Below, piece by piece: positions 10,744 to 35,467 of a stretch of 64,000 nucleotides of DNA. The position numbers and the translations under genes are program-made. Positions within the stretch are counted from its first letter, which is position 1. Each line of letters starts with the position of its first letter. Below the pieces are notes generated by a model that was given only the letters and a program-made list of their open reading frames with translations, searched no databases and was not told where the DNA came from. Source of the stretch: an uncultured bacterium (GTDB lineage: Bacteria > Krumholzibacteriota > Krumholzibacteriia > LZORAL124-64-63); the NCBI GenBank assembly GCA_937864225.1, contig CALMJK010000005.1, forward strand, positions 456,212 through 520,211, written 5' to 3'.

Positions 10744-12441
10744 ATGAATCGTACCCAACAGATCAGGTTTGGCCTGACCGCCGCCCTGACCCTCCTGTCG
10801 ATCTACCTGCTCATCCCCACGTTCCGCGCGGCCGGCATTTCTCAGGCCGACCGCGCCGCCGCGGCGAGCGATCCGGACGCGAAGGCCCGGATCGACGGCA
10901 TCGATGCCCGGGCCATCCGGCGCGGGCTCGACCTGCAGGGCGGCATGTACCTGGTGCTCGAGGTCGAGCAGGAGGGGATGACCGGCGACCAGGCGCAGGA
11001 CGCCCTGCGTCGCGTGCGGGAGATCATCACCAATCGCGTGGATCAGTTCGGCGTGAGCGAGCCGGTCATCCAGACGCAGGGCAACAGCCGCATCATCGTG
11101 CAGTTGCCCGGCCTGCAGGATCCGGAGCGCGCCAAGAGCCTGATCGGCCGCACGGCGCGGCTGGAGTTCCGCCTGGTGCGAGCCCTCGAGGAGATTCCCG
11201 GGGTAGTGGCGCGGCTGGACGAGGCCTTCCGCGCGGCCGGCGCCGCGCGCGGCGACACGAGCGCGCTCGCCAGCGCGCCCTTGGCCTCTGGCGAGCCCGC
11301 CGACCCGGGCGCCGCGGCGTCGGATCTGCCGCAGCTGCCCACGCCGGTGGATCGCGACGAGGACGCCCAGTACGTGCGCGACCATCCGTTCTCGGCCTAC
11401 GTCTCGCAGGACGAGGACTTCGCGCGCATGTACGGCACGCCGCTCTACTCCGAAGAAGGCGATGTCGCGCGCGTGGAGAGCCTGCTGCAGCAGCCCGCGG
11501 CGCGGGTGCTGGGCACCGCTCTCGAGTTCCAGTACGACACCGAGGCCTTGACCTACGGTGCCTTGCGCGTGCGTCCGCTCTATCTGCTCAACGCGACGCC
11601 CAGCCTCACGGGGGATCGGCTGACCAACGCGCGCAGCGCGCCCGACCCGGAGCGGCCGGGCGGCTGGCAGGTCGAGATGACGCTCGACCGGCGCGGCGCG
11701 CGCGAGTTCGCGCGGGTCACGGGCGAGAACGTGGGACGCAACCTGGCCATCACGCTCGACGGCCGGGTCGCCTCGGCGCCGAACATCCGCACCAAGATCC
11801 CCAGCGGCAAGGCGTCGATCAGCGGCAGCTTCACCAACGTCGAGGCCGCGGATCTCGCCCTGCTCCTGCGCGCGGGAGCCCTGCCGGCCAACGTGCGGAT
11901 CGAAGAAGAGCGCACGGTGGGGCCGGGCCTGGGACGCGACTCCATCCGCCTGGGCGTGCGCGCCGGCCTGATCGGCGCGGCGCTGGTCGTGCTCTTCATG
12001 ATCATCTACTACCGGTTCTCCGGCGTGATCGCCGTGGTCGGGCTGATCGTCAACCTGCTGATCCTGATGGCGGCCCTGGCCCAGTTCGGCCTCACGCTCA
12101 CGCTCCCCGGCATCGCGGGCATCGTGCTCACGGTCGGCATGGCCGTCGACGCCAACGTGCTGATCAACGAGCGCATCCGCGAGGAGCTGCGCAAGAACAA
12201 GACCGTGCGCGCGGCGGTGGACTCCGGTTTCAACAACGCCATGCGCACGATCCTCGACGCCAACATCACGACCCTCATCACGGGCATCATCCTGCTCTGG
12301 TTCGGCACCGGCCCGATCAAGGGCTTCGCGGTGACCTTGAGCATCGGCATCTGCACGACCGTGTTCGTCGCGCTGGTTTTGAACCGCGCGATCATGGAGT
12401 CCCTCGCGCGCGATCCGGCGCGCACGACGCTGAGCATCTGA
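10744..12441 (+). CDS. secD: Protein translocase subunit SecD
   Basis: MNRTQQIRFGLTAALTLLSIYLL…LDLQGGMYLVLEV…NRVDQFGVSEPVIQ…; C-terminal 6 TM; start at MNRTQ rather than track 10606. Confidence 0.9.
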   Translation: MNRTQQIRFGLTAALTLLSIYLLIPTFRAAGISQADRAAAASDPDAKARIDGIDARAIRRGLDLQGGMYLVLEVEQEGMTGDQAQDALRRVREIITNRVDQFGVSEPVIQTQGNSRIIVQLPGLQDPERAKSLIGRTARLEFRLVRALEEIPGVVARLDEAFRAAGAARGDTSALASAPLASGEPADPGAAASDLPQLPTPVDRDEDAQYVRDHPFSAYVSQDEDFARMYGTPLYSEEGDVARVESLLQQPAARVLGTALEFQYDTEALTYGALRVRPLYLLNATPSLTGDRLTNARSAPDPERPGGWQVEMTLDRRGAREFARVTGENVGRNLAITLDGRVASAPNIRTKIPSGKASISGSFTNVEAADLALLLRAGALPANVRIEEERTVGPGLGRDSIRLGVRAGLIGAALVVLFMIIYYRFSGVIAVVGLIVNLLILMAALAQFGLTLTLPGIAGIVLTVGMAVDANVLINERIREELRKNKTVRAAVDSGFNNAMRTILDANITTLITGIILLWFGTGPIKGFAVTLSIGICTTVFVALVLNRAIMESLARDPARTTLSI

Positions 12442-12510: not shown

Positions 12511-13437
12511 ATGTTGCAGCTCTTCCACAACGCGAACTACGACATCATGGGGAAGATGAAGGTGGCCTTCATCCTCTCCGCCCTCATCATCGGCGCCGGT
12601 CTGGTGTCGCTGGTGGCGCGCGGCGGGCCGCGCTGGAGCATCGACTTCACCGGCGGCTCGGTGCTGCAGGTGGTCATCCAGCCCACGCCCGGCACGGCCG
12701 AGGTGCGGCGCATCATCGCGGGCGCCGGCTTCCGGGACGCCCAGGTGCAGGACTTCGGTTCGCCGCAGGAGTTCCTCATCACGCTGCCCGGCGTCGAAAG
12801 CGGCGGGACGAGCGCGGCCAACCAGGCCGAGGCGGCCCTGCGGGCGGCGCTGCCGCAGGCGCAGGTCGAGTTGCGTCGCGAGGAGAAGGTCGGCCCCAAG
12901 ATCGGCGGCGAGCTCAAGACCGCGGCCCTCAACTCGGTGCTGGCCGCCTGCTTCCTGGTCGTGGGCTACCTGAGCGTGCGCTTCATCTTCCGGTACGGCG
13001 TGGCGGCGCTGCTGGCCACGCTGCACGACGTGATCATCACGCTGGGCGTGTTCTCGCTCCTGAACAAGGAGATCTCCCTGTCCATCGTCGCGGCGTTCCT
13101 GACGATCATCGGCTACTCCCTCAACGACACGATCGTGGTCTTCGACCGGATCCGGGAGAACATGCGGCTGCGCCGGCGCGAGGGGTATCGCGAGGTGCTC
13201 AACCGCTCCATCAACGAGACCCTCAGCCGCACCGTGCTGACCGCGGGCACCACGCTGCTGACCGCGTTCACCCTCTGGTTGCTGGGCGGCCCGGTCATTC
13301 ACGATTTCGCCTTCTGCATGACTTTCGGCGTGCTGACGGGGACCTTCTCGTCGATCTTCATCGCCTCCCCCCTGCTGCTGCTGTGGCACGAGCGGGCGGC
13401 GCGCGGCGAGCGGCGGCGGGCGCAACCGGCCATGTAG
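12511..13437 (+). CDS. secF: Protein translocase subunit SecF
   Basis: FDIMGK…IDFTGGS…LNDTIVVFDRIREN… SecF signatures. Confidence 0.9.
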   Translation: MLQLFHNANYDIMGKMKVAFILSALIIGAGLVSLVARGGPRWSIDFTGGSVLQVVIQPTPGTAEVRRIIAGAGFRDAQVQDFGSPQEFLITLPGVESGGTSAANQAEAALRAALPQAQVELRREEKVGPKIGGELKTAALNSVLAACFLVVGYLSVRFIFRYGVAALLATLHDVIITLGVFSLLNKEISLSIVAAFLTIIGYSLNDTIVVFDRIRENMRLRRREGYREVLNRSINETLSRTVLTAGTTLLTAFTLWLLGGPVIHDFAFCMTFGVLTGTFSSIFIASPLLLLWHERAARGERRRAQPAM

Positions 13438-13491: not shown

Positions 13492-13685
13492 CGCCTTGGC
13501 GGGGATTGTCTTCTATTGGGGCCGGATCGCCCTCTGGCCGCCACGGCGCCGCGCCGGCGCTTTCCCGCGCGGCCCGCGTGCGTTAGAATGGCGTGGTTCG
13601 GCGCCGGCCGGGTCTGGCACGGCCCTTGCGCCGTGGGCAAAGGCATCCGGAGTCCCTACCTTGTCCCGCACGCGAAGGCGTCCCC

Positions 13686-14141
13686 GTGCAGCGAGGCCCC
13701 GACAACAAGCGTTCCCTGTGGCTGGCCGTGGCGCTGGTCGGTGCCCTGGCGGGCGCAGCCGCGGCGGCGCCGGCGGCCGATCCCGCTCAAGACGCCTTCA
13801 GCGCGATCGCGCGGGCTTGGCTCGTGGAGGATCACGCGGCGTTGGCGAATCTGATCGCGCCCGACGGTGCGGAGATCGCGCTGGGCCCGCGGCCGGGGGC
13901 GCGCCGTTACAGCGCCAGCCAGGCGTTCTATTTCTTCAAGACCCTTTTCCGGTCCACCGACACGGATGCCTTCCGCTTCTCGCTGCAGCGCTCCGAGTCG
14001 GACGCTGCCCTCGCGCACGCGGTGGCCGACTGGAGCTACCGCCGGGCCGGGCAGGAGGGGGCGCGCGTCGAGCGCCTGGTCTTCACCCTCGCGCGGGGAG
14101 AGACGGGTTGGGGTCTGACCGACATCCACGCCATCCGCTGA
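13686..14141 (+). CDS. Secreted NTF2/SnoaL-like (DUF4783-like) protein, hypothetical
   Basis: GTG start VQRGPDNKRSLWLAVALVGALAGAAAA signal peptide; track ORF starts earlier (13593) in R-rich leader. Confidence 0.6.
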   Translation: MQRGPDNKRSLWLAVALVGALAGAAAAAPAADPAQDAFSAIARAWLVEDHAALANLIAPDGAEIALGPRPGARRYSASQAFYFFKTLFRSTDTDAFRFSLQRSESDAALAHAVADWSYRRAGQEGARVERLVFTLARGETGWGLTDIHAIR

Positions 14142-14172
14142 CCCGCCGGACGCGGCCGCGCGTCGCCCGCCG

Positions 14173-17100
14173 ATGAGCCGCGCACTGGCCAGCCGAGCCG
14201 TGCCCCTGGTCGCCCTTCTGCTGCAGGCGGGGTCGGTGCTGGTTTCCGCCGGGACGCAGCGGCTGCCGGCGCCGGCGTGGCCCGTGGCCGCGGCGGCGGT
14301 CGCGCTCGTCGCCGTGGCGGCCGTGGGCTGGTCGTGGCCGGCCGCCCCGCACCGGCGCCGCCCGGCCCTGGCGCTGCTGATCGCCGCGCAACTCGCGCTG
14401 GTCGCACTCTTCTGGGCGGCCCGCCCCGAGCGAGCTTCCGACACCACCTGGGTCGAGGCCCGGCGGCGGGATCTGTCGGCCCGCGCCGTCGCGCTGGAAC
14501 CGATCGTCGAGCGATTGGGCCTCGCGCTGGACGGTGTGGCGGCGGCCGCCGGCCGGACCCCGGGCGCCGACGCCTTCGACCTGGTCGAGACGCTCGCGAG
14601 CGAATGGACCCGCGACCGACAGACGGCGGCGGTCTGGCCCTTGGCCGTCGTCCTCTGGCGGGACGGCGAGCGCCTGGCATGGAGCAGCCGGGCCCAGCCG
14701 CTGCCCCCGCCGGGGCCGGACGCCGTGAACGCCGAGGGGCGCGGCGGTCGCGTGGCGGCCGGCCGCGACGGCTGGTACTGGCGCCGCTATCACCGCCTGC
14801 CCGGAGCCGCCGGGGGGCCGGCCGTGCTCGAGCTGCAGCTCTGGCTCGCGCCCCAGGAAGGGGCGGCGGGCGCCGGGCAGGTGACGCTGGCCGGAGCGGC
14901 ATCGCCGGCGTCGCGCGTGGAGCCGGGGGCGGTCGCCGAGCCGCTGCGCCTCGAGGGCGACGCGCGCGCGGGGCTGATGGCGACGCTGGCCCGTCCCCTG
15001 CCCGATCCGGGAGACGACGGCTTCGCGCGGCGCCTGCGCCTTGTGCTGGCGGAGCCGGCCCGCGGCATGGCCGCCCACGCGCCGGCGGCGCGCCGGCTCG
15101 TGGCGCTGCTGGCGGTCTGGGCCGTGGCGCTGGCGGCGTGGGGAGCGGCCGTGGCGGGCACGAGCGGAGCGCTGGCCGGCGCGTGGGCGGCCCGCCTGCT
15201 GTGTGCCCGCGTCGACTTGCTGCGCTGGGCGCAGCCGGCCTCCGGGCGCGAGATCTCGACGGTCTCGCCCGAGGGGCTGTCCAGCCTGATCGACCCCGCG
15301 TATTTCGCCACTCCGGCCCTGGGAGGCCTGCTGGCTTCCGTCGCGGACGCCCTGGCCACGGCGCTCTTGCTGGCCGCGACGGCGGCGCTGCTTTGGCGGC
15401 GCACGTCGGCGCGCACGGCGCCGGCGTCGCCCGCCGGCCGCGCGCGGCGGGCGGACTTCGCAACCGCGGCGCTGTGGGGCCTGGCCGCCGTCGCCGTCTT
15501 GCTGGCCACGCGCTGGCTGGCGCTGACGCTGGCCGAAAGCGCCAATCCCCGGCTGATCGGCCCGAGGATCCCGTACCGCCATCTCAGCTTCTGGGCCTTG
15601 CACCTGAGCCTGCTGGCGGCGTGCGCGTCGCTCGTGGGACTGCTGCACCGGGGCGCGACCCGGCTGGGGCGAGGGTGGGGCGTCGCACTGAGTGTCGCGG
15701 TCGCGGTCGTCGCGGGCGGCGCCGCGGCGCGCGGACTCGACGGGGTGGCACGCGTCGCCCTACTGCTGGCCTCGCTGCTGCTCTGCGGAGGCGGCGCCCT
15801 GGCGCGCAAGGCGACGCCGACCGCGCGCCGGCTCGCCCTGCTGGCGCCGGCCCTGGTGACCGTGACCTGGATCTACGGTTCCCTCGCCGAGGCGTACCGC
15901 CGGGCCGAAACGGCTTGGCTGGAGCGCAAGGCGGCGGAGATCGTCGCGCCGCAGCAGGAGTGGCTGAGCTTTCTGCTGGGCGACGCGCTGGCGGGCATGG
16001 CGGCCGCCGACGCGCAAAGCGAAGGGCAGATCGCCGCCGTCTCGGTCGCCTCTGCCGAATTGTGGCGCAACTGGCCGGCGTTCGATCTGTGGCGACGTTC
16101 GACCGTGCGCGATCTGGGCCTGCCGTGCTTGGTCGAGCTGATCGACGGCGAAGGACGCGGCGAAAGCTTCTTCGCCTCCGGCTTCTTTCGCGACTTCGGC
16201 TACGAAGTGGGCGAGCGGCAGCCGTGGGTTTCGCTGGAACCGCGAGGGGAGCAGACGCCGGCCGGCGCGGAGATCCGCGCCCAAGCCGAGCGCAGGCGCT
16301 TCCCGGCCGGCGACGAATGGATCCTGCGCGGCGAGATCGCGCGCGCGAACGGGTCCGGGTGGATCCGTCTGGAACTGCCGATGCAGTCGCGACGCATCGC
16401 CACGCTGCTGGCGGGTCTGGAGGGAGCGGCGGCGGCTGGGCCCGGCCCGGCCTACCAGCCGCGGGCCGAGGTGGACCGTGGCGTCCTGCTCGTGCGCGGC
16501 GGCGCGCGCGGCTGGCTCGACGCGGGCTCGGGGCCGTTTCCCGACGTGGCGGCCGAGAGGGTGATCGCCGCGCGCGGAGCCCCGGGCGCGCCGTGGACCA
16601 CCGTGCGCGCGGGCGAGACCTCCTATCGTTGCGTCTGGCAGCCGGTGCCCGCCGCGCGCGCCACCGAGGCGGGCGAGGGCTTCCTGCTGGGGGTCGAAGA
16701 GCCCGGCTTCGGCGACCGCCTGCTCGATCTTTCCCGGCTCAGCCTGCTGCACCTGCTTTTGGCGGCCGTTCTCGTCGTCCCCGTGCTGCTGGGACGGCTG
16801 GCGCGCCGGGGGCGCCCGCTCGCGCTCGGTTTCCAGGAGCGGTTCTTCGCCGCCTACCTGGTGCTGGGGATGTTGCCGCTGTTGCTCGCGGGCACCTTCA
16901 TCGACCGACTCACCGTGCAGGGGCTCGCGGCCGCGGCGCGCGCCCAGGCCAGGGACGGGTTGGAGGCGGCCCTGGCGCAGCTGCAGGGGCTGCTGGGAGA
17001 GCAGGCCCGGGCCCTGGCCGGCAGCGAGTACATTGCGGATCTGCTGGCAAGCCGCATGGAAGGCTTGCGACCGGTGGGACCGTTCGAAGCGCGACAGGCG

Positions 17101-18966
17101 ATCCTGTTCGACGGCGACGGGCGACTGCTGCTGGACGAGACGCTCAGCGACCTCGACGAGGTGGAGGCGGCACGACTGCTCGACACCGCGCGCGCGGCGC
17201 CGCTGGTGGTCATGGAGGCTGACAGGCAGCTTTACCTGGGCCTGATCGTTCCCGTGGACCTGTCGGACCTGATGCTCTCCCCGGCCGAGGCGCGCGCCGA
17301 CGAAGCGGCGGCCAGGGACCGCCAGGCCAACGGCTGGTTCTTCTATCGACAGCTGGTCGGCGACGCCTTGCTTGCCGGGCTGGCCGAGATCGTTCAGGGG
17401 GAAGTGGCCCTGAGCGAAGACGGCGAGATCGTGCTGGCCAGCCATCCGGAACGGGTGTTCGCCGGCGCGCAGCCGCCGCTCATGGCGCCGTCGACCGCGC
17501 GGCGCCTGTCGCGCTGGCCAGGCAGCCCAGACGTCGCGACGGCTCCCGGCACGCGGCTTTCGTTCACGGCCAGCCTGGCCCTGCCCGCGCTGGCGCTCGA
17601 CGAGGACGGCGGACTGCGCCGCCGGACCGTGCCGGCGGCGCTGTCGATCGCCTTCCCCGCGCGCGAGCGCGAGCTGTCGCAGCAGCGGGAAAGGACCGTG
17701 CTGTCCCTCGCCGGCCTGGCCACGCTCATCTTCCTGACCGCCGCCGCGCTCGGGCTGGCGCTGGCGTGGCGGATCTTCGGGCCGGTGCGCGTGCTGGTCA
17801 ACGCCACGCGCCGGCTGGCCGGCGGTGATTTCGCGGCTCCGCTGCCGGAAACGGGGCGCGACGAGGTGGGTCTGCTGTCGGCCTCCTTCCAAGCCATGCG
17901 CGACGACTTGGCGCGCGCGCAGGGCGAACTGGCCTCGCGCGAGCGCTTCCTCGCCACCGTCCTGGCGCGCGTGCCCGTGGGGGTCGTGGTCTTCCGCGCG
18001 GATGGGTCCGTGACCGTGCTCAATCCCGCGGCGGCGGACATTCTTGCGGCCGCGAGCGGCGAGGCGGCCGAGCCGCCGGAAGCCGCGGCCGTGGCGTTGC
18101 GCGAGGCGTTTCGGGCCCGGATCGCGGATCTCGCCGAAGGCGAGGCCGAGCTGCGCCGCGGGCACCGCACGCTGCGCGGCCGACTGGCCCCGCTGCGGGC
18201 GGAAGCCGGCGAGGGCGAACTGCTGCTCGTGTTCGAGGACGTGACGGAGTTCCTCGACACCAAGCGGCTGGCGCTCAACGCGGAGCTGGCGCGTCAGGTC
18301 GCGCACGAGATCAAGAACCCGCTGACGCCCATCCAGCTCTCCATCCAGTTCCTCGAGCAGGCGTTCCGCGACCGCGCGCCCGGCCTCGACGACGTTGTGC
18401 GCGACACGGTGCGCCAGGTGCTCGGGCAGGTCGCGCTCCTGCGGCAGATCGCGACCGAGTTCAGCCTGCTCGGCAAGCCAGGCGCGCTGCCGGTCGCGCC
18501 GCTCGAATTGCCCCGACTCGTCCGGCGGCTGACGGACCGCTACCGCAACGCGGGGGCTGCCGGCGGCCCGCGCGTGGACATCGCCCCGGACGCGGTGCCG
18601 GCGGTGCTGGCCGACGCGGAATCGCTGGAGAAGGTGCTGGCCAATCTGATGGAAAATTCGCTGCAGGCGGTCGGCGACCCGGCGCGGCTGGAGTTGACCG
18701 TGACCTGGGAGGTCACGCCGCGCGAGGTGACCCTGCAGTGGGCCGACAACGGCGGCGGCCTGCCGCCGGACGTGGCCGAGAGGCTGTTCGAGCTCTATTT
18801 TTCCACCAAGAGCCAGGGCACGGGTCTCGGTCTGGCCATCTGCCGCAGCCTGCTCGAACGGATGGGCGGGCGGATCGCGCTGTCCAATCGCCGCGACGGC
18901 GCGGGCGCGGTGGCGGCCGTCACGCTGCCCCGCGCCGCGCCTGAGACGTCATCGACAGGGGGTTGA
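14173..18966 (+). CDS. NtrY-like sensor histidine kinase, unusually long (1597 aa): ~1100-aa polytopic/extracytoplasmic N-terminus, HAMP, PAS, HisKA, HATPase_c
   Basis: H-box VAHEIKNPLTPIQLSIQFLE (NtrY signature), HAMP RRLAGGDFAAPLPETGRDEVGLL, N/G boxes LMENSLQAV…DNGGGLP…GTGLGLAI; start uncertain. Confidence 0.8.
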   Translation: MSRALASRAVPLVALLLQAGSVLVSAGTQRLPAPAWPVAAAAVALVAVAAVGWSWPAAPHRRRPALALLIAAQLALVALFWAARPERASDTTWVEARRRDLSARAVALEPIVERLGLALDGVAAAAGRTPGADAFDLVETLASEWTRDRQTAAVWPLAVVLWRDGERLAWSSRAQPLPPPGPDAVNAEGRGGRVAAGRDGWYWRRYHRLPGAAGGPAVLELQLWLAPQEGAAGAGQVTLAGAASPASRVEPGAVAEPLRLEGDARAGLMATLARPLPDPGDDGFARRLRLVLAEPARGMAAHAPAARRLVALLAVWAVALAAWGAAVAGTSGALAGAWAARLLCARVDLLRWAQPASGREISTVSPEGLSSLIDPAYFATPALGGLLASVADALATALLLAATAALLWRRTSARTAPASPAGRARRADFATAALWGLAAVAVLLATRWLALTLAESANPRLIGPRIPYRHLSFWALHLSLLAACASLVGLLHRGATRLGRGWGVALSVAVAVVAGGAAARGLDGVARVALLLASLLLCGGGALARKATPTARRLALLAPALVTVTWIYGSLAEAYRRAETAWLERKAAEIVAPQQEWLSFLLGDALAGMAAADAQSEGQIAAVSVASAELWRNWPAFDLWRRSTVRDLGLPCLVELIDGEGRGESFFASGFFRDFGYEVGERQPWVSLEPRGEQTPAGAEIRAQAERRRFPAGDEWILRGEIARANGSGWIRLELPMQSRRIATLLAGLEGAAAAGPGPAYQPRAEVDRGVLLVRGGARGWLDAGSGPFPDVAAERVIAARGAPGAPWTTVRAGETSYRCVWQPVPAARATEAGEGFLLGVEEPGFGDRLLDLSRLSLLHLLLAAVLVVPVLLGRLARRGRPLALGFQERFFAAYLVLGMLPLLLAGTFIDRLTVQGLAAAARAQARDGLEAALAQLQGLLGEQARALAGSEYIADLLASRMEGLRPVGPFEARQAILFDGDGRLLLDETLSDLDEVEAARLLDTARAAPLVVMEADRQLYLGLIVPVDLSDLMLSPAEARADEAAARDRQANGWFFYRQLVGDALLAGLAEIVQGEVALSEDGEIVLASHPERVFAGAQPPLMAPSTARRLSRWPGSPDVATAPGTRLSFTASLALPALALDEDGGLRRRTVPAALSIAFPARERELSQQRERTVLSLAGLATLIFLTAAALGLALAWRIFGPVRVLVNATRRLAGGDFAAPLPETGRDEVGLLSASFQAMRDDLARAQGELASRERFLATVLARVPVGVVVFRADGSVTVLNPAAADILAAASGEAAEPPEAAAVALREAFRARIADLAEGEAELRRGHRTLRGRLAPLRAEAGEGELLLVFEDVTEFLDTKRLALNAELARQVAHEIKNPLTPIQLSIQFLEQAFRDRAPGLDDVVRDTVRQVLGQVALLRQIATEFSLLGKPGALPVAPLELPRLVRRLTDRYRNAGAAGGPRVDIAPDAVPAVLADAESLEKVLANLMENSLQAVGDPARLELTVTWEVTPREVTLQWADNGGGLPPDVAERLFELYFSTKSQGTGLGLAICRSLLERMGGRIALSNRRDGAGAVAAVTLPRAAPETSSTGG

Positions 18967-19769
18967 AGCGCTTGCCCACGGAGGTCGCGAGGCTGGCGCG
19001 GCAGCCGCGGGGTTCGTCCCGGGCGCCGAGGCGAGCGGGCCCTGCGGCCCTGGTCCGCGGCGTCGCGGCCTGTCTGGCGCTGCTGTCGCTGTGGCCCGCG
19101 ATCGGGCTCGCCCAACGGACGGCGGAGCGGGGCGCCGTTTCGCCGCGCCTGGCGGCCCCGGCGGCGCCGCCGGAGCCGGAAGTGCGCGTGGCGCGCTGGC
19201 ATTATCCCGGCGGGGGCGACTGGTACGCCAATCCCAGTTCCTTGCCCAACTGGTTGCGGGAGTTCACGGCGCGCACGGGCATCCCGGCCGCGCGGGAAGA
19301 GGTGGTCGTCACCCTCGGCAGCGAGGATCTCTATCGTTATCCGCTGCTGTACGCGACGGGGCACGGCCGCATCGCGCTCGACGACCGGGAAACGGAGGCG
19401 TTGCGCCGGTGGCTGCAGGCCGGCGGAATGCTGTGGGTGGACGACAACTACGGTCTGGACCGCTCGTTCCGCGAGTTGGCGGCGCGGCTGTTCCCGGACA
19501 CGCCGCTGGCGCGGCTCGGATCCGACCATGCGATCTACCATGCCTACTACGACCTGCCCGGCTTGCCCAAGATCCACGAGCACGACGGGGAGCCGGCCCA
19601 AGGCTTCGGCGTGACGCGACAGGGACGGCTGCTCGTGCTCTACACCTGGTCCAGCGACATCGGCGACGGGCTCGAGGATCCCGACGTGCACGGCGATCCG
19701 GCGCTCGTGCGCGAGGCGGCCGCGCGCATGGCGGTCAACGTGCTCGTCTATGCCCTCACGCATCCCTAG
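18963..19769 (+). CDS. DUF4159-like domain protein (GATase1-like fold family)
   Basis: TTG start overlapping HK stop (TTGA); …WYANPSSLPNWLREF…YPLLYATGHGRIALDDRETEALRRWLQAGGMLWVDDNYG… typical of DUF4159. Confidence 0.7.
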   Translation: MKRLPTEVARLARQPRGSSRAPRRAGPAALVRGVAACLALLSLWPAIGLAQRTAERGAVSPRLAAPAAPPEPEVRVARWHYPGGGDWYANPSSLPNWLREFTARTGIPAAREEVVVTLGSEDLYRYPLLYATGHGRIALDDRETEALRRWLQAGGMLWVDDNYGLDRSFRELAARLFPDTPLARLGSDHAIYHAYYDLPGLPKIHEHDGEPAQGFGVTRQGRLLVLYTWSSDIGDGLEDPDVHGDPALVREAAARMAVNVLVYALTHP

Positions 19770-19788
19770 GCGGCGCGGAGGCCTGGCC

Positions 19789-22700
19789 ATGTCCGATGCC
19801 CTTTCGCGCGAACGCTTCGACCGGCGGCTGGGAAGCCTGCATGCCGCGGCGCGTCGCCGGGCGCTGCTGCGCGGCCTGCTGGCGACCGTCGCGATCGGCG
19901 CCGGCGCCTTCGGCGCGGCCGCGTGGGCGGTGGGGGGCGACACCGAACCGTCGGCGACCTGGCGCGTCTGGATGCTCGGCGGCGTCGCGCTGTTGACCGC
20001 GCGATCGCTGCACGCGCACTGGTGGCAGCCGCTGCGCGCGCTGCGCGACCGCGCGGCGCTCAGCCGCCTGCTCGACCACGACGGCGCGCTGCGCAACCTG
20101 ACCGTCGCGGCCGAGGAGGCCGGACGCCGGCCCGAACGCTGGGGCGCCGCGGCCGGCGTGCCCGCGGCGCTGCGGGAGCGCCTCTATGCCGGCGCGACGC
20201 AGGCGATCGCCGGCGTGCGCCTCGGCCGGCGGATGCCGCTGCGCGGAGTCTGGGCCGGCGTCGTCGGCGCCGCCGTGACGGCGGCGGCGTTGCTGCTGTT
20301 GGCCGCGGCGGCGCCGGAGCGCCTGTCCCGCGGCGCCGCGCGCTTGCTGCACCCTTGGCGCCCGGACGCGCCGCCGGCCGAGGTCGGGTTGTATCTGGTG
20401 CGCCCGGAGCTGTCCGTCGTGGCGGGGACCGACGCCGAGCTCGCAGCGCGGGATTTCGGGCGGCCGCGCAACGGCGTGATCTGCGAGGTGCGGGTCGGCG
20501 AAGGTTTGTGGCAGCCCCTGGCCGCCAGGCGGGAGCATCGCCCGTACGCTCCCTACGACCTGTGGATCGCGCGGCTGCCCGCCGCGCGCGAATCGTTCGC
20601 CTACCGTTTCCGGCGCGACGGCATGACGACCCCGGCGGGATGGGCGGACGTCGTCCACCCGCCGCTGCTCGCCGCGTGGGGAGGTCGCCTGAGCCCGCCA
20701 TCCTACACGCGGCTGCCGGCGCAGGCGCTGCCGCAGCTGCCGTCGCGGCTGCGGGCGCCCGAGGGCAGTCGTCTGGCCTGGGAGGGCTTCGCGCGCGGCC
20801 GCCTCGCTTGGGCGTCCGTCGTGCCGACCGCCGGCGACACCCTGCCGCTGCTGGTCCGGGGCGACACGCTGCGGGGCGAGGCGCGGCTTTGCGCCTCGCT
20901 GCAGTACACGGTGGCGTTGCGCGACGAGCGCGGTCTCGAGAACGCGCCGCGCGTGATCTACGCCGTCGACGTCGTGCCCGACGCGCCGCCGGTGGCCACG
21001 CTCGCGCGGGAGGGCGACGACGGTCGCCTCCCCGCCGAAGGCCCGGTGCGGCTGTCGGCGCAAGCCAGCGACGATTGGGGCGTTTCGCGGCTGAGCCTGC
21101 TGCTGCGGCGCGAAAGCGCCGGCGCGGTCGTGCCCGACTCGGCGCAGGCCGCGGTCGGCTGGAGCAGCCTGACGATCTGGCCGACGCCCGCGCGCGGCGG
21201 ACCCGCGTCGCCCGCGGACAGCCTGGACACCCCCTGGGGAACCGTCGCGGTGCGAGCGGAGGGACCGGCCGGACCGCTGTCGGCGGGACCGCTCGCCTTC
21301 GACCTCGCGCTCGACGTCGCGCGGCTCGATCTGCTGCCCGGGGACGCGCTGGCGGTCTGCGTCGAAGCGCTCGACAACCGGCAGCCCGGCCCGCCGGGGC
21401 GCGGCCGCTCGGCCGTCGTGCGCCTGGTGCTGCCTTCGGCGGCGGATCTGCTGGCCGAGCAGATGGGCGAGGGCGAAAAGCGCGCCGACGGCCTCGACCT
21501 GCTGCGCAGTCGCGGCGAGGACCTCGGGCAGCAGCTCGAGGAGCTCGCGCGCGAATTGAAAAAGGAGCCGACGCCCGCTTGGGAGAAGCGGCAGCAACTG
21601 CAGGCGGCGTTGGAGCAGCAGCGAGCGTTGCGCGAGGAGTTCCGGCGGGTCGCCGGCGAACTTCAGCGCGACATCGAGAGGATGGCGCGGGAGGACCTCG
21701 GTTCCGTCGCGCTGCTGGAGAAGATGCAGCAGGTCTCCGAACTGATCGAGCAGGTGGAGAGCCGAGAACTGGATCAGCTGCTCGCGCAGCTGAGGGAGCA
21801 GGCGCGCAGCCTCACGCCCGAAGAGGTGCGCGCCGCGATCGAGGCGGCGGCGCGTGACCGGCAAGAGTACGAGCAGCGGCTGGACCGCGCCATCGGATTG
21901 CTGCGCGAGCTGGTCCGCGAGCAACAGATGCAGGGATTGACCTCGGTCACGGAGCGGCTGCTGCGCGAACAGCAGACCCTGATCGACGCCGCCCGCGCCG
22001 ACAGCGCCGGGGCGCGCGCGTCGGCCCGCGACGAGGACCGCCAGACACAGGGGCAACGCCAGGCGGCTCTGGCCGACGAGGCCAGGAAGTTGGCCGAGCA
22101 AGTGCGCGAGGCGCTGGCGCGCCTGCGGGCGGAGCAGCAGGAGGGCGGCGCTCCCCGCAGCCCGGCGGCCGACGAAATGCGGCGCGCGCTGGAGGAGGCG
22201 GCGCGCCGGCTGGAGCAGGGCCGGCCCGATCGGCCGATGGACGAGGCGGCGAGGGACCTGCACGAGAAGACGCCGCCGGCCTCGCCGGTGGAGGCGCAGC
22301 AGCAGGCGCTGCGAGAGTTGGCGGCGCTGTACCACGTGCTGCTCAAGGGACAGTCCGGCATGCAGATGGCCATGGAGCAGCACGCCAAGCTGAGTCTGCG
22401 GCGGCTGGCCGCGGACTTGCTGGCGCTTTCGGCGCGCGAAGAAGAGATCGCCGGAAAGGTGCCGTCGGATCTGCGCGGCGTCGCGGCGGGAGATCTCACG
22501 CGAGGCCAGAACCGGATCCTCAAGGCGACGCTCGCCGTGCAGGAACGCCTGCAGGCGCTCGGCACCCAGTCGCCAGCCGTCTCGATGCGCTTGCTGCGCG
22601 ACCTGAGCAAGCTGGTCGACCACCTCGACGCGGCGGTGCGCGCGCTTGAGATCGGGATAGGGGCGCTCGCCGGACGGCAGGCGCGCGAGTGCCTGGGCGA

Positions 22701-23391
22701 TCTGAATCGGATGGTGATCGGACTGTTGACGGCGGCCCAGCAGTCGAGTTCAGGCGGCGGCAGCGGCATGCCGATGCCTGCCGCCAGCGAGCAATTGCAG
22801 CAGATGGCGCGCGAGCAGGCGGGATTGAATGGGCTCGCGGACCAGCTGTGGCGCCAACTGCGCCAGCGGGGGCTGAGCGAGGAAACGCGCGCCGGCATGC
22901 GCCGGCTGCAGAGCGAGCAAGGGGGACTGGCGGGTCGCCTCGCCGAGCTGGACCGGCAAGCCGACGCCAAGGCGGACGGCGAGCGCATTCTGGGCGATCT
23001 GCGAGAACTGGCCCGCGAGATGGAGCAGGTCGCGGAAGAGCTGGGCACGGGACGGCTCGACGAGGAGGTGCTCGTCCGCCAGGAGCGCATCCTGGGCCGC
23101 CTGCTCGATGCCCACAATTCGGTGCGCAAGAGGGATTTCGCGCAGCGACGCGCCAGCCGCAGCGCTCTGGAACCCTTCGCCCCGCAGAGCGGCGAGTCCG
23201 CGGCGGCGGACGGGGCCGGCCGGGACGACCCTTATCGCCGGCGCAGCGAATCGGTGGAGAAGGCGCCGCCGGACTATCGCGAACTCGTGCGCCGCTATTT
23301 CAGGGCGCTGGAGGCGTTGCGGCCGGACGCCGCGGGACAAGCGGCGCCGGCGCCGTCCGGGACGCCGCCCGGCGCGACGGGAGAGCCATGA
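19789..23391 (+). CDS. Large (1200 aa) membrane-anchored coiled-coil protein, DUF4175-like
   Basis: Three N-terminal TM helices, long E/R/Q/L/A coiled-coil C-terminal half, C-terminal PDYRELVRRYFRALE; ATG 19789 (in frame with track 19750). Confidence 0.75.
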   Translation: MSDALSRERFDRRLGSLHAAARRRALLRGLLATVAIGAGAFGAAAWAVGGDTEPSATWRVWMLGGVALLTARSLHAHWWQPLRALRDRAALSRLLDHDGALRNLTVAAEEAGRRPERWGAAAGVPAALRERLYAGATQAIAGVRLGRRMPLRGVWAGVVGAAVTAAALLLLAAAAPERLSRGAARLLHPWRPDAPPAEVGLYLVRPELSVVAGTDAELAARDFGRPRNGVICEVRVGEGLWQPLAARREHRPYAPYDLWIARLPAARESFAYRFRRDGMTTPAGWADVVHPPLLAAWGGRLSPPSYTRLPAQALPQLPSRLRAPEGSRLAWEGFARGRLAWASVVPTAGDTLPLLVRGDTLRGEARLCASLQYTVALRDERGLENAPRVIYAVDVVPDAPPVATLAREGDDGRLPAEGPVRLSAQASDDWGVSRLSLLLRRESAGAVVPDSAQAAVGWSSLTIWPTPARGGPASPADSLDTPWGTVAVRAEGPAGPLSAGPLAFDLALDVARLDLLPGDALAVCVEALDNRQPGPPGRGRSAVVRLVLPSAADLLAEQMGEGEKRADGLDLLRSRGEDLGQQLEELARELKKEPTPAWEKRQQLQAALEQQRALREEFRRVAGELQRDIERMAREDLGSVALLEKMQQVSELIEQVESRELDQLLAQLREQARSLTPEEVRAAIEAAARDRQEYEQRLDRAIGLLRELVREQQMQGLTSVTERLLREQQTLIDAARADSAGARASARDEDRQTQGQRQAALADEARKLAEQVREALARLRAEQQEGGAPRSPAADEMRRALEEAARRLEQGRPDRPMDEAARDLHEKTPPASPVEAQQQALRELAALYHVLLKGQSGMQMAMEQHAKLSLRRLAADLLALSAREEEIAGKVPSDLRGVAAGDLTRGQNRILKATLAVQERLQALGTQSPAVSMRLLRDLSKLVDHLDAAVRALEIGIGALAGRQARECLGDLNRMVIGLLTAAQQSSSGGGSGMPMPAASEQLQQMAREQAGLNGLADQLWRQLRQRGLSEETRAGMRRLQSEQGGLAGRLAELDRQADAKADGERILGDLRELAREMEQVAEELGTGRLDEEVLVRQERILGRLLDAHNSVRKRDFAQRRASRSALEPFAPQSGESAAADGAGRDDPYRRRSESVEKAPPDYRELVRRYFRALEALRPDAAGQAAPAPSGTPPGATGEP

Positions 23392-25319
23392 ACGCCCCGC
23401 GTGGACACGCGGCCTTCCTGTGCGTCTGCCTGATGGCGATCGCGCCGGCGGCGGCGCCCGCGCGCCCGGACGAGCGGCAAACAGTGCCGGCCTTCATGCC
23501 GCGTCTGGATTGGCAGATGAGGCTGTCCGAGGTGGACAAGCTGCTCGCCCTGGGCAACGTGGCGCGAGCGGAGCAACTCCTGAAGGGGCTCGAGGCGGGG
23601 CCGGCGCCCCGCCGCGACCTGGCGACGCGCTGGCTCGCCGTCGCGCAGCGGCGGGGCGATCACGCGACCGCGGTGACGCTCTGCCGCGAAATCCTGGCGG
23701 GGCAGCCGCGCAATCCGCGCTTCCTGCGCGAGCTGGCGCGCTCGTCGATGGCCCTGGGCGACCTGCCGGCGGCGCGCGCGGCCGTCGACAGCTTCGTGGC
23801 CGTCAGCCCGGATCCCCACAGCGGCGCGCTGATCGCGACCGACCTGTGGCAGCGCGCGGGCCGGCACGAGGAGGCGCTCGCCCTCATCGACGCCCAACGG
23901 CGAGCGCGAGCGGACCCGCGGGTGTACGCGCGCCAGAGAGGCGCGAGCCTCATCGCGCTGGAACGCCTGGCGGAAGGGGCCGCCGAACTGGTGGCGGAAG
24001 GGGCCGCGAACCTCGTGAACCTGCCGCTGCTGCGCGCCGAACTGCTCGAGATGAGCGGGGACGCCGCCACGGCGGTCCGACTGGCGCGTTGCTTCGCCGT
24101 CCACGCCAACGACGTCGGCGACGGCGGCACGGCCGCGGCGGTGCTGGCGGCCAGCCTGGAGTTGCGCGCGGCGCGGGCGGCCGAAGCGTTGGCGGTGGTG
24201 GAGCCGCTCCACGGCGAGCGCAACCGGGCGGCGATCCTGCTGCAACTGGCCTCGGTGCTCGTGCGCGAGGCGCCGCTTGGCGAGGACCGCCCGGCGCGAA
24301 CGGCCACGACCGAGTTCCTGCTCACGGCGCTGGAAAGGCTAGGCGCGCCCGGCGTGCTCGACTCCGGGTTCCGGATCCGCGCCCTCGGCCTGCTCGCGCA
24401 GACGGCGGAGGACGCGCTGCGCGATGGAGTGCTGGCCGCCGCCCCGGAGGACGCGGAGCGCCGCCTGGCGCGGGTGCTCGACCTGGTGCGGCAAGGCAGT
24501 CCGGGCTCGGCGCACCTCTACGCGGCGCAGATCCTGCTGGCCCATCACACGCGCGACGTGCTGAGGCGGCCGGCCGAGGCGGCCGCGCGCCTGGAGCGCC
24601 TGCTCACCGATCTCGACCTGCCGCTGGAGGGGGTGACGCTGGCGCGCCTGGCGCTGGGAGAGTGCTACCTGGCGGCCGGGGACACGGCGCGGGGACGCCT
24701 CGTGCTGACGCGGCTGGCGCGCGGCGCCCCGGGTCCGCACCGCGCCGCGGCCGGGCAGGCCAACTGGGCCCTGGCCCGCCTCGATCTGGCCCAGGGGCAC
24801 TTCGCAACGGCGCGCGATCGCCTCGCCGCCGTGGCGCTCGACAACCCGCTGGCGGACTACGCCAACGATGCCCTGGAACTGGGTCTGGTCGTGGCCGAGG
24901 AGCTCGAGAGCGCGGCGAGAGGCCAGGAGCGGCTCGCGCTGTACGCGCAGAGCGTTCGTCACCAGCTCGGCGCGGCTGCCGATTCCCAGCTCGTGGCCCT
25001 CGAGCACTTCGTGGCGGCGGTCGGCGCCGACACGGCGCAGGCGCGGCCCCCGCATCTGCTCGAGAGGGGACGGCTCGAATTGGCTCGCCTGTACCGCGAC
25101 CGGGGCAACGCGCAGGGCGCGCTGACGCAGTGCGACCGCATCATCCTCGACCATCCGGACGGACGCCACCCGGCGGACGCCCTGGTGCTCAAGGGCGAGA
25201 TCGCCATGGCCGGCGGAAATCCCGCGGCGGCCCGCGAGGCCTGGGAAAGGCTGCTGCTGCAATACCCGGACTGGCTGTTCGCAGACGATGTCCGGGACCG
25301 CATGCGGAGCCTGCCGTGA
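23388..25319 (+). CDS. Secreted tetratricopeptide-repeat protein
   Basis: ATG overlaps upstream stop (ATGA); signal peptide MNAPRGHAAFLCVCLMAIAPAAAPA; repeated A/L-rich TPR-like helices. Confidence 0.8.
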   Translation: MNAPRGHAAFLCVCLMAIAPAAAPARPDERQTVPAFMPRLDWQMRLSEVDKLLALGNVARAEQLLKGLEAGPAPRRDLATRWLAVAQRRGDHATAVTLCREILAGQPRNPRFLRELARSSMALGDLPAARAAVDSFVAVSPDPHSGALIATDLWQRAGRHEEALALIDAQRRARADPRVYARQRGASLIALERLAEGAAELVAEGAANLVNLPLLRAELLEMSGDAATAVRLARCFAVHANDVGDGGTAAAVLAASLELRAARAAEALAVVEPLHGERNRAAILLQLASVLVREAPLGEDRPARTATTEFLLTALERLGAPGVLDSGFRIRALGLLAQTAEDALRDGVLAAAPEDAERRLARVLDLVRQGSPGSAHLYAAQILLAHHTRDVLRRPAEAAARLERLLTDLDLPLEGVTLARLALGECYLAAGDTARGRLVLTRLARGAPGPHRAAAGQANWALARLDLAQGHFATARDRLAAVALDNPLADYANDALELGLVVAEELESAARGQERLALYAQSVRHQLGAAADSQLVALEHFVAAVGADTAQARPPHLLERGRLELARLYRDRGNAQGALTQCDRIILDHPDGRHPADALVLKGEIAMAGGNPAAAREAWERLLLQYPDWLFADDVRDRMRSLP

Positions 25320-25345
25320 GGGGCCGCCGGCGCGACCGGGCCGGG

Positions 25346-26593
25346 ATGTCGGTCCTGCTGCTGGCCATTCTGCTCGGCGCGGCGCCGGCGGCGGCCGAGG
25401 ACTGGCTGCTGATCCCGATGGACCTCGCCCAGACGAATCACCTGCGCGCCTACGGCCATGCCTTCCACTCGCTCCAAGCCGGCGAGAACGTGAGCTGGCT
25501 GCTCAATTACCGCGGCGGGAGCTTTCTCATGCGCGCCACCGCCCGGGCCCGGCTCGACGCGCGGCTGTTGGGGGTCGCGTGCGAGGAGTTGGGCGATGCG
25601 GCCGCCGCCGCCGTCCGGACGCTGGTCGCGACGGAGAACATGGAGGACGTGCTGCTGGAGAAGGCCCCGCGCATCGCGGTGTACACGCCTCCCTACGCGC
25701 AACCCTGGGACGACGCGGTCATGCTGGCGCTCGACTACGCGGACATCCCATACGACGTGGTGTACGACCGCGAGGTGCTGGTGGATCGGCTGCGCGAATA
25801 CGACTGGCTGCACCTGCACCACGAGGATTTCACCGGCCAGTCCGGCAAGTTCTATTCCCTGCAACTCGAGCCGTGGTACCTGGAGCAGAAGGAGTTCAAC
25901 GAGAACCTCGCGCGCGAGCTCGGCTTCGACGGCGTGTGGCGGCTCAAGCACGCCGTGGCCCTGAAGATCGCGCAGTACGTCGAGGAGGGCGGTTTCCTGT
26001 TCGCGATGTGCTCGGCGACCGACACGATCGACATCGCTCTTGCCTTCCTGGGCGTAGACATCGTGCCGTCCGAGTACGACGGCGATCCCCTCGACGCGCT
26101 CCACGAGGACAAGCGGGACGACGCGCGGGCCTTCGCCTTCACGGGTTTCTCGCTCGTGACCGACCCGTTGGTGTACGAATACTCCAACATCGACACGAGC
26201 GATTATGCACAGCTGCGCGGCCCGGAGGCCGACTACTTCACCCTGTTCTCCTTTTCGGCCAAGATCGATCCCGTGCCGACGATGCTCGTGCAGGATCACG
26301 TCGCCGTCGTGAACGGATTCATGGGCCAGACCACCGGTTTCCGCCGGCCGCTGCTCAAGCGCGCCGTCACCATCCTGGCGCAGGTGGAGGGCACGGACGA
26401 GGTGCGTTACCTGCACGGCAAGCGCGGTCGCGGCACCTTCACCTTCCTGGGCGGGCACGATCCGGAGGATTATCAGCATGCCGTCGGCGACCCGCCGACG
26501 GACCTCGACCTGCACCCGACCTCCCCGGGCTACCGTCTCGTCCTGAACAACGTCCTGTTCCCGGCCGCCCGTAAGAAGCCCCAGAAAACGTGA
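25346..26593 (+). CDS. Secreted 415-aa protein, ThuA/GATase1-like family (often database-labelled 'asparagine synthetase B')
   Basis: Signal peptide MSVLLLAILLGAAPAAAEDW; …RIAVYTPPYAQPWDD…YDWLHLHHEDFTG…GGFLFAMCSATDTIDIA…; function call low-confidence. Confidence 0.75.
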   Translation: MSVLLLAILLGAAPAAAEDWLLIPMDLAQTNHLRAYGHAFHSLQAGENVSWLLNYRGGSFLMRATARARLDARLLGVACEELGDAAAAAVRTLVATENMEDVLLEKAPRIAVYTPPYAQPWDDAVMLALDYADIPYDVVYDREVLVDRLREYDWLHLHHEDFTGQSGKFYSLQLEPWYLEQKEFNENLARELGFDGVWRLKHAVALKIAQYVEEGGFLFAMCSATDTIDIALAFLGVDIVPSEYDGDPLDALHEDKRDDARAFAFTGFSLVTDPLVYEYSNIDTSDYAQLRGPEADYFTLFSFSAKIDPVPTMLVQDHVAVVNGFMGQTTGFRRPLLKRAVTILAQVEGTDEVRYLHGKRGRGTFTFLGGHDPEDYQHAVGDPPTDLDLHPTSPGYRLVLNNVLFPAARKKPQKT

Positions 26594-26614: not shown

Positions 26615-27496
26615 CTAGGATTTTAGGCTGGCGGGCGCGCGCCGCGCGGCCTGGAGCCGGGCGGCGCGGCCGAGCATCGCGATCGCCACGGCCAGCGCGG
26701 GCAGGGACGCGGCGAGGTACGTTGCGGCGGTCGCATCGAAGCCACCGGCGGCCGTCTCCTGCCCGTCGGCGCGCAGCATCATGGTCAGGGCCACGCCGTT
26801 GTGCGCGGCGTGGGCCGCGGCGCAAGCGGTGACCGAGCGCGTGAGCGCCCAGACACAGCCCATGAGCAGGCCGACGCCCACCAGTCCGAACAGGTACCAC
26901 GGTTCGCCGTGCAACAGCGCGAAGGCGAGGGCGGCCAGCACGGCCGCCGGCCAGGCGCCCCAGAGCCGCGCGGCGAGCCGCTGCAGGATCCCCCGGAAGA
27001 GCAATTCCTCCGCCACGGGAGCGACGAGCATGACCGCGGCGTAGGCCATAACGATCGCCGGGCCGGAGCGCGGCAACTGACGGGCGTACAACTCCTGCCA
27101 ATGCTGCGGCACGGGGTGCAGGCGCGTGGACAGGTCCGCCAGCACGGATGTCGGCGCGAGCGAGGCGAGGGCGGCCGCCACCGACCAAACCAGCACGCCG
27201 GCCGACGGGCGGTCGAGGGCGAAGTCTCGCCTCAGTGAGCCCCCGGTCCCGCGCGCGAGCAGCGCGCACGGCAGCAAGACTCCCAGCAGGCCGCCCGCCG
27301 CGACCGCCGCGAAGATCCGGTCGGTGAGCGCGAACGTCGCGGCCTGCACGCCGGCGTTCGCCGTCAGGCACGCCAGCGCCCAGACCAGCAGGCGCAGGCC
27401 GCCCCAGGTTCGCCACAGGTCCGGCCGGGGGCCGGGGCCACCGTTTCCTGCTGGGCCCGGCGGGTCGGGGCTTGGATCGCGCGGCTCGTCTTGCAT
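26615..27496 (-). CDS. CPBP family intramembrane glutamic endopeptidase (CAAX protease-like)
   Basis: Motifs EELLFRG, FALLHGE, HAAHNG in order. Confidence 0.85.
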   Translation of the reverse strand: MQDEPRDPSPDPPGPAGNGGPGPRPDLWRTWGGLRLLVWALACLTANAGVQAATFALTDRIFAAVAAGGLLGVLLPCALLARGTGGSLRRDFALDRPSAGVLVWSVAAALASLAPTSVLADLSTRLHPVPQHWQELYARQLPRSGPAIVMAYAAVMLVAPVAEELLFRGILQRLAARLWGAWPAAVLAALAFALLHGEPWYLFGLVGVGLLMGCVWALTRSVTACAAAHAAHNGVALTMMLRADGQETAAGGFDATAATYLAASLPALAVAIAMLGRAARLQAARRAPASLKS

Positions 27497-32087: not shown

Positions 32088-32091
32088 GCGT

Positions 32092-35453: not shown

Positions 35454-35467
35454 GAGCGAAGCACTCG

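Follow-up and report, generated by a model that had tools for sequence, protein, structure and literature searches.

What is a 1597-aa sensor histidine kinase doing in a closely packed run of genes for envelope proteins whose families have no known function? The question is raised by a 64,000-nt stretch of DNA (hereafter, the window) from an uncultured member of the Krumholzibacteriota (assembly GCA_937864225.1, contig CALMJK010000005.1, positions 456,212 to 520,211). An earlier note had described here five packed + strand genes at 14173-26593, with TTGA and ATGA overlaps of stop and start codons. Coordinates and gene calls agree with that description, and a sixth + strand gene precedes the five. 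We refer to these genes as G0 to G5, and to compared loci by L-numbers (L001, L012, L089 etc.). G1 encodes the kinase, G2 a DUF4159 protein, G3 a large inner-membrane protein, G4 a secreted tetratricopeptide repeat (TPR) protein and G5 a secreted protein with a class-I glutamine-amidotransferase-like (GATase1-like) fold. The reading that we favor, and to which we give about an even chance, is that G2-G5 would be a periplasmic module of the Fibrobacteres-Chlorobi-Bacteroidetes (FCB) bacteria, joined in Krumholzibacteriota-like bacteria by a giant sensor kinase dedicated to it, with functions suggested by fold, conservation and gene order.

A six-gene block laid out like an operon

The kinase gene G1 (14173-18966; product polytopic by hydropathy) follows G0 (13686-14141), a gene for a small secreted, possibly NTF2-like protein of 151 aa that was called by metagenome gene callers. 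It is followed, all on the + strand, by G2 (18963-19769; 268 aa, with an N-terminal signal or anchor segment), G3 (19789-23391; 1200 aa), G4 (23388-25319; 643 aa) and G5 (25316-26593; 425 aa). G0 ends 31 nt before the kinase gene. The TTG start of G2 overlaps the G1 stop by 4 nt (TTGA), a 19-nt gap separates G2 from G3, and 4-nt overlaps join G3 to G4 (ATGA) and G4 to G5 (GTGA). For G5, the gene callers use the GTG at 25316 (425 aa) rather than the ATG at 25346 (415 aa). Junction spacing across the block runs from -4 to about +140 nt, and this tightness is kept in the loci of distant relatives. Judged by its junctions, the block is operon-like, a putative six-gene operon. Scans for promoters and terminators inside it gave no signal above chance, and Rfam gave no match in it.

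The whole window has a GC content of ~72% and therefore contains many long spurious open reading frames (ORFs). All five ORFs of 14173-26593 were recovered on the + strand, tightly packed, and the same genes were called independently in metagenome assemblies by two gene callers. The reading frames isolated by a stop-to-stop scan, those of G1, G2 and G3, have a G+C content at third codon positions (GC3) of 0.89-0.90, and homologs of block genes reach down to E<1e-100. On these three grounds, G1-G5 are taken as real genes and not as chance ORFs in 72% GC DNA. Two other candidates were rejected. One is an ORF at 13496-14176 whose stop overlaps the kinase ATG (ATGA); it fails the GC3 scan, is uncalled by the gene callers and has no homologs. 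The other is a 94-nt tRNA-Arg(TCG) reported by ARAGORN at 24744-24837 (+) inside G4, a probable false positive in GC-rich coding DNA, for which Rfam gave no support; no tRNA reached the gathering score anywhere in the window.

G5 is a conserved family with a GATase1-like fold

G5 has more than 8000 homologs. Among the matches listed, at least 600 species genomes (one genome per species) carry it at 53-66% identity to the window protein. Labels of metagenome-assembled genomes (MAGs) with G5 include Fibrobacteraceae, Ignavibacteria, Chlorobiota, Bacteroidota (including Lutibacter, Owenweeksia and Balneolales), Calditrichota, Cloacimonadota, Neomarinimicrobiota, Latescibacterota, Zixibacteria, KSB1, WOR-3, Eisenbacteria and Krumholzibacteriota. 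A few G5 loci bear non-FCB labels (Hyphomicrobiales, Limnocylindrales, Lentisphaeria), which may be binning errors. About 110 columns are invariant over 100 sequences, and alignments of the family have a mean column identity of 59-63%. The earlier note had overlooked this strong FCB-wide conservation, as well as G0 and the misleading name under which G5 is found in databases. That name, 'asparagine synthetase B', is given by NCBI and UniRef to many G5 orthologs. It is unsupported because the protein has a signal peptide, a length of 425 aa and no Asn_synthase or class-II (Ntn) GATase domain in Pfam at E<=10; NCBIfam likewise returned no match.

Searches with the single sequence and with profiles of 25 and 100 sequences found no match to G5 in Pfam, NCBIfam or PDB sequences. 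Pfam gave nothing at E<=0.01 and noise at E<=10, with no match to ThuA (PF06283). Relationships emerged at the level of structure. A first AlphaFold2 (AF2) model, made from 25 close homologs, had a predicted local distance difference test score (pLDDT) of 59 and Foldseek matches that were merely suggestive. It was replaced by a second model, made from 100 sequences of three clades, with a pLDDT of 87.9 and a predicted TM-score (pTM) of 0.88. Against the PDB, the second model had 44 Foldseek matches at E<=1e-3, nearly all of them class-I glutamine-amidotransferase-like domains. The best match is STM3548 (2gk3; E 1.4e-7), and STM1381 is also found; others are the middle domain of family 42 glycoside hydrolases (GH42) and related glycosidases, and the N-terminal (GIFT) domain of IFT52. 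The catalytic proteins lin1909 and SpuA are among the significant matches. We are confident, on the strength of the model, in assigning G5 a GATase1-like fold. The original description of a 415-aa ThuA/GATase1-like protein stands at the level of the fold only, since ThuA has no hidden Markov model (HMM) match, and falls for the length.

STM3548, the GH42 middle domain, ThuA, DUF4159 (4i66) and the GIFT domain of GldG/IFT52 all resemble the G5 model, with Foldseek E-values of 1e-7 to 5e-4. G5 differs from them in having no HMM-level similarity to any, in its size (~180 aa more), in its additional N-terminal subdomain and in its insertion at 244-330. It also keeps a cysteine at the nucleophile elbow and a His/Glu pair, presumably unlike the STM3548, GH42 middle, ThuA, DUF4159 and GIFT families.

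These residues are Cys232 (nt 26009-26011), His381 (nt 26456-26458) and Glu384 (nt 26465-26467), invariant in 100/100 sequences and in 53/53 phylum-diverse ones. Cys232, the sole invariant cysteine of G5, lies between strand 227-231 and helix 233-243 (DSSP of the model). Its context, A-M-C-S-A, is that of a nucleophile elbow, the residues at -2 and +2 being small. H381-D-P-E384 comes after the last core strand (373-378), with H381 three residues beyond it in the same DSSP assignment. A His-Pro-Glu after the last core strand is a feature of GATase1 enzymes. From the model and the conservation we infer a Cys-His-Glu catalytic set. The catalytic class-I GATase and C26-type proteins (lin1909, SpuA/PuuD, gamma-glutamyl hydrolase) share with G5 the fold, the elbow Cys and the topology of the C-terminal His...Glu; G5 differs in being secreted, in its non-canonical motifs (AMCSA, HDPE) and in showing no sequence-level homology to them. 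A further invariant motif, HLHHEDFTGQ (residues 166-175, from nt 25811), could, with six additional invariant histidines, form a metal or polar-substrate site.

G5 might instead be a structural or adaptor subunit built on a degenerate GATase1-like fold, with its invariant Cys, His, Asp and Glu binding a metal or a partner and the module as a whole serving as an architectural, periplasm-spanning tether or scaffold. The best fold matches (STM3548, STM1381, the GH42 middle domain and the IFT52 N-terminal domain) are non-catalytic or uncharacterised, as this would predict. The very high conservation along the whole protein is also more typical of a part of a multi-partner machine than of a simple hydrolase, and eight invariant His with many invariant Asp/Glu suggest metal binding. 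We nevertheless consider a non-enzymatic G5 somewhat unlikely: its sole invariant Cys falls exactly at the elbow position, the His-x-x-Glu comes after the last core strand, its place in catalytic GATase1 enzymes too, and catalytic lin1909 and SpuA are among the significant fold matches.

The tail of G5, F-P-A-A-x-K-K-x-Q-K-T-COOH (window 26561-26590), is nearly invariant across phyla, which is unusual for a protein C-terminus. It may serve as a docking peptide, with the TPR protein as one conceivable receiver.

G2, G3 and G4

The protein encoded by G2 was recognised from the outset as DUF4159-like, and the HMM scan bears this out: it matches PF13709 with 189.9 bits (gathering 25.9; E 4.8e-56) over model positions 3-202 of 202. 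In the PDB it matches 4i66 (Hoch_4089, uncharacterised) at E 3.9e-18. On structural grounds, Pfam has placed DUF4159 in the glutaminase-I clan (PMC4702930). After a short 'GG-hydrophobic' strand shared with G5, G2 has an Asp at the position equivalent to the G5 Cys, a stretch that amounts to a 16-column local match only. Homology between the G5 and G2 families was examined with hhalign and rejected, since the 16-column match, at a probability of 18%, is no evidence of it.

For G3, the proposed DUF4175-like identity holds by orthology and not for the window copy itself, which matches neither PF13779 (DUF4175) nor any other Pfam family at E<=10. PF13779 is matched by 15 of 17 aligned sequences, namely window G3 and 16 syntenic orthologs, with a best E of 1.3e-23, and window G3 matches its L001 ortholog at E 5e-174. 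G3 is accordingly classed, by orthology, shared position and topology, as a divergent member of the DUF4175 family. The three transmembrane (TM) segments first read from the window copy recur in all 17 sequences, which share a K/R-rich N-terminus, TM1, a short loop, TM2, a ~75-aa K/R-rich loop, TM3 and then ~950 aa. Because this pattern follows the positive-inside rule in the 17 aligned sequences, the C-terminal bulk (~1000 aa) is predicted to be periplasmic. This predicted periplasmic domain contains a conserved DD.G.S.L.L.Y block at residues 428-441, followed by a long A/L/R/E/Q-rich helical region and a conserved C-terminal motif; against PDB sequences, G3 gave coiled-coil noise only.

G4 was rightly taken for a secreted TPR protein. 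It has a signal peptide and Pfam matches to TPR_19 (E 3.8e-15), TPR_16 and TPR_6. Signal peptides or anchors are found on G2, G4 and G5.

DUF4175-family membrane proteins linked to the envelope or to division, and similar to G3 in this respect, are RSP_0730 of R. sphaeroides and AdvA of A. baumannii; we take TIGR02302 to be equivalent to DUF4175. They differ in being proteobacterial, much shorter or differently organised, and without TPR or G5 partner genes, and window G3 itself falls below the DUF4175 HMM. AdvA, which carries two TMs and a DUF4175 region, acts in division and is essential (PMC7481262). In R. sphaeroides, the envelope two-component system CenKR directly targets the gene of a 'TIGR02302 family protein' (PMC9275681).

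The module across FCB phyla

Gene neighbourhoods were compared by profile searches of 80 genome loci. Of the 44 loci whose sequence extends 6.8 kb or more upstream of G5, 13 have G2-G3-G4-G5 in the same order. The MAGs with the full block are labelled Krumholzibacteriota, Eisenbacteria, Latescibacterota, Neomarinimicrobiota, KSB1, FCB group and Fibrobacteraceae. Where the upstream DNA is long enough to tell, in 67 loci, G5 has a G4-like TPR gene as its immediate upstream neighbour in 32. The kinase is absent upstream of G2 in 13 module loci (tblastn). In L012 and L032, the ORFs directly upstream of G2 have SecD/SecF-like lengths (~600 and ~320 aa), an identification by length and position. Kinase-less loci with other genes upstream of G2 fit an insertion of G0-G1. 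As judged from these neighbourhoods, the kinase was added in one lineage to a four-gene core, which many FCB phyla have without it.

Elsewhere G5 has other neighbours: lepA-lepB-hemW-G4-G5 in Calditrichota, lepB-hemW-G5 in Cloacimonadota, G4-clpX-G5 in Ignavibacteria and dnaB-G5 in Lutibacter profundi (Flavobacteriia). As an observation apart, the module and the type IX secretion system are similar in phyletic range.

The locus might also belong to a Bat/MoxR-type ('aerotolerance'-like) system whose MoxR AAA+ and VWA/DUF58 partners are encoded elsewhere in the genome. The kinase would then be one of several regulators, and G5 an accessory GATase1-like protein analogous to the C-terminal domains of long BatA-type proteins. 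TPR proteins belong to Bat operons. DUF4159 and DUF4175 are both confirmed here, and Bat/MoxR-DUF58-VWA loci share with the module DUF4159, a DUF4175-family membrane protein and TPR proteins, all envelope-located. In Latescibacterota the two sets meet. G5 is directly followed by MoxR in L066 (10890-12272; AAA_3 E ~1e-62), MoxR comes after the module in L082 (10890-12275), and a HEAT/PhyH protein, MoxR and DUF58, here found once, follow G5 in L037 (11216-14686). In Riemerella, a two-component system is reported to control the MoxR/Bat locus (PMC9603813, PMC11834572). However, Latescibacterota are the only place where the module touches this gene set. The operon and the 64-kb window lack MoxR, DUF58, BatA/BatB (VWA) and BatD, with no MoxR found in the window by tblastn. 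No BatA, VWA or DUF58 gene was called in any kinase-containing locus, and most of the 80 loci have no MoxR nearby. The module also adds a secreted GATase1-fold protein with Cys/His/Glu and, in this lineage, the giant kinase. We regard a Bat/MoxR-type system as unlikely; it is compatible with the favored reading, and it names a neighbourhood and not a mechanism, because the function of Bat itself is unknown. According to PMC3557215, what the Bat proteins do is still undefined. The idea that the kinase stands in place of MoxR/vWA was thus put too strongly: the window indeed has no MoxR, but the core lives without the kinase, and MoxR follows it in Latescibacterota.

The giant kinase and G0

G1 has the size, H-box and large polytopic N-terminus first attributed to it. 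Pfam recognises a core of HAMP (nt 17761-17910), a weak PAS_4 (nt 17968-18252), HisKA (nt 18280-18471) and HATPase_c (nt 18613-18933) within residues 1197-1587. The H-box AHEIKNPLTPI lies at residues 1377-1387 (nt 18301-18333). Hydropathy gives ~13 hydrophobic segments before HAMP, the last TM at nt 17707-17763, and two or three large predicted periplasmic loops, for which residues 84-304, 573-855 and 911-1178 are the candidates. This sensor region, residues 1-1176, has zero Pfam matches at E<=10, and for that reason no NtrY-type N-terminal domain is detected in G1. No NCBIfam equivalog cut-off was reached. The best is AtoS, with 149.6 bits against a cut-off of 646 and an alignment that covers the core (E 1e-43), and WalK and ZraS also give partial matches. 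The nearest solved kinase core is that of ZraS (E 1.8e-23, PDB sequences). We take the H-box to be of the NtrB/NtrY/AtoS/ZraS class and its motif to be NtrY-typical. On this evidence, the 'NtrY-like' label fits the H-box and the kinase core and does not extend to the sensor region. NtrY/NtrX, AtoS and ZraS share the HAMP-PAS-HisKA-HATPase_c core and a HEIKNPLTPI-type H-box; G1 differs from NtrY/NtrX in its 1176-aa, ~13-segment sensor without a Pfam match, which forms a small family of its own, and in having an envelope module instead of ntrX as its genomic partner, with no sigma54-type regulator encoded in the window. The claim that no NtrX-type regulator adjoins the kinase is upheld by a search of all six frames of the 64 kb, which found no GAFTGA, ESELFG or Walker-type enhancer-binding-protein motif of a sigma54-type (NtrX/NtrC) regulator. 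Neither the operon nor four related kinase loci contain a receiver-domain gene.

Taken at face value, the database names would make this a nitrogen-regulation locus, with an NtrY-type kinase and an 'asparagine synthetase B'. The class of the H-box and the name of the G5 orthologs are the two things that suggest it. It is scarcely credible and is contradicted by the tests: G5 carries a signal peptide and shows neither an Asn_synthase nor a class-II GATase domain at E<=10, nor any NCBIfam match, and the kinase has no Pfam-detectable N-terminal domain, stays below every NCBIfam equivalog cut-off and has no NtrX/NtrC-type gene in the window.

Among 1.84 billion representatives, the sensor-region family comprises 87 representative clusters at E<=1e-3. 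Most of its full-length members have 1500-1740 aa, and the motifs DPAYFATP..GGL and NANPRLIG are conserved over 26 members. All four distant members that were checked (24-30% identity) neighbour DUF4159 and the large protein, so the recurrence that the earlier note had asked about is found. In three of these loci the order is secD-secF-(G0)-histidine kinase-DUF4159-large protein-TPR-G5, and in the fourth 8 kb separate the kinase from DUF4159 and the large protein, which lie downstream of it. The sensor family adjoins the module in every context examined. Because all four distant members share the neighbourhood and the family is tiny, we consider the linkage between kinase and module real but limited to one lineage. 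In L091 (10873-14641), FlgD_ig/Por_Secre_tail genes, of the type IX secretion cargo type, lie between the kinase and DUF4159, which may be coincidence.

G0 appears to belong with the kinase. Its homologs precede the giant-kinase genes in three of the four distant loci (L089, L090 and L091), with blastp E-values of 6.5e-7 and 5e-3 and, among the other homologs, 1.7e-21. Its Pfam matches, DUF4440 and DUF4783 (NTF2-like), are both sub-threshold. A profile search found no credible copy outside kinase-containing loci.

Could the arrangement be mere synteny of housekeeping envelope genes around secDF, without a shared function and with a kinase that regulates something else? G5 does stand beside the unrelated dnaB, clpX and lepA-lepB-hemW in other phyla, no regulator is linked to the kinase, and secD-secF lie ahead of the block in many loci. 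On the other hand, start/stop overlaps join four of the five genes, the order is kept though G3 is only 19-25% and the kinase sensor 24-30% identical, and a sensor family of 87 clusters stands beside the module in every context examined. We consider mere synteny very unlikely.

A proposed mechanism and what weighs against it

The reading that we favor has two layers. In the first, G2-G5 would be an ancient four-gene FCB module whose products form a periplasm-facing complex with its anchor in the inner membrane. G3 would provide the scaffold through its ~1000-aa periplasmic part, with the conserved domain and the long helical region, G4 would act as a soluble TPR adaptor, and G2 would contribute a GATase1-like fold without a nucleophile. 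G5, with its invariant Cys on a strand-Cys-helix elbow and its invariant His-x-x-Glu, would be the likely catalytic subunit. Its substrate in the envelope would be a protein, a peptidoglycan peptide or a lipid-linked molecule, of which it probably hydrolyses or transfers an amide or thioester-type bond. In the second layer, G0-G1 would be a lineage-specific addition, inserted between secDF and the module. The periplasmic loops of the kinase would monitor the state of the module or its substrate, and its output would pass through an unlinked response regulator, probably of the NtrC type as judged by the class of the H-box.

Several points weigh against this reading. In the G5 model, block 381-390 has a pLDDT of only 66, and the candidate triad is judged by topology, not by distances. 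The TM-scores of the Foldseek matches are modest (0.46-0.60 on the target), and the proteins closest in structure, namely STM3548, the GH42 middle domain and IFT52, are either non-catalytic or uncharacterised. Where canonical members have G-x-C-x-G and H-P-E, G5 has A-M-C-S-A and H-D-P-E. For a physical association of G2-G5, synteny is the one line of evidence. G5 may also work independently, because in Flavobacteriia, Ignavibacteria, Cloacimonadota and Calditrichota it stands apart from G2/G3 among housekeeping genes. Finally, a response regulator is linked to the kinase in none of the five contexts examined.

Surroundings of the block in the window

Upstream of the block lie secD (10744-12441) and secF (12511-13437), the latter before G0. 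On the other side, convergent to G5 and 21 nt from its stop, is a gene for an Rce1-like (CPBP-family) intramembrane protease (26615-27496, - strand). G5 is likewise followed by the Rce1-like gene in L001 and L090, and in L088 the two lie within 2-3 kb of each other, a conserved synteny in this clade. At ~31100-36000 (+) is a signalling cluster, matched by L002 15786-21278 and conserved in L001. It encodes a response regulator-GGDEF protein and a histidine kinase that carries GAF and HD/HD_5 domains, as well as a single-domain response regulator and another GAF-HD kinase. The products of this cluster are candidate partners for the orphan giant kinase.

Farther upstream, at 4848-6917 (+), a 689-aa protein without a Pfam match is encoded. 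Its gene is flanked by that of an rRNA adenine dimethylase and by two small no-Pfam genes, and a Polysacc_deac_2 gene and secDF lie downstream of it. The 689-aa protein is a possible conserved unknown, as L090 has a 717-aa no-Pfam gene in the matching position, a likeness by position and length. The rest of the window is housekeeping, with PriA, 2-oxoacid:ferredoxin oxidoreductase, an S8 peptidase, GH57 and GlgC.

Significance

No functional description of the block was found in the searchable literature, in line with what the earlier note had supposed. Full-text searches returned no functional work on DUF4159, only tangential data on DUF4175 and no functional study of a DUF4159/DUF4175/TPR/G5 module. 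DUF4159 and DUF4175 are widespread envelope families without known function, which here occur in a fixed four-gene module with G5. The coupling to the kinase is real but rare; the wider value of the locus lies in the G5 family, which lacks a Pfam or NCBIfam model, and in the fixed module. Because G5 is secreted and yet 53-66% identical across FCB phyla, an undescribed core envelope process is indicated. The kinase-coupled version offers an experimental handle, being a sensor whose only conserved genomic partner is the module. Named cultured carriers of G5 are Lutibacter profundi and Caldithrix abyssi, and cultured relatives of the Ignavibacterium and Fibrobacteraceae MAGs with G5 may carry it too. 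Since cultured carriers exist, genetics is feasible. In the databases, thousands of 'asparagine synthetase B' entries should be re-annotated.

A more far-reaching proposal, which we put forward tentatively and think possible though doubtful, is that G5 would be the catalytic core of an unrecognised periplasmic envelope-maturation machine, nearly universal in FCB bacteria, for which the giant kinase would be a dedicated feedback sensor. Composed of DUF4159, a DUF4175 scaffold, a TPR protein and a Cys-hydrolase/transferase, this machine would carry out a lineage-defining modification or processing of an envelope component. If true, it would provide the first mechanistic foothold for DUF4159 and DUF4175 and, by extension, for the Bat/MoxR-associated genes.

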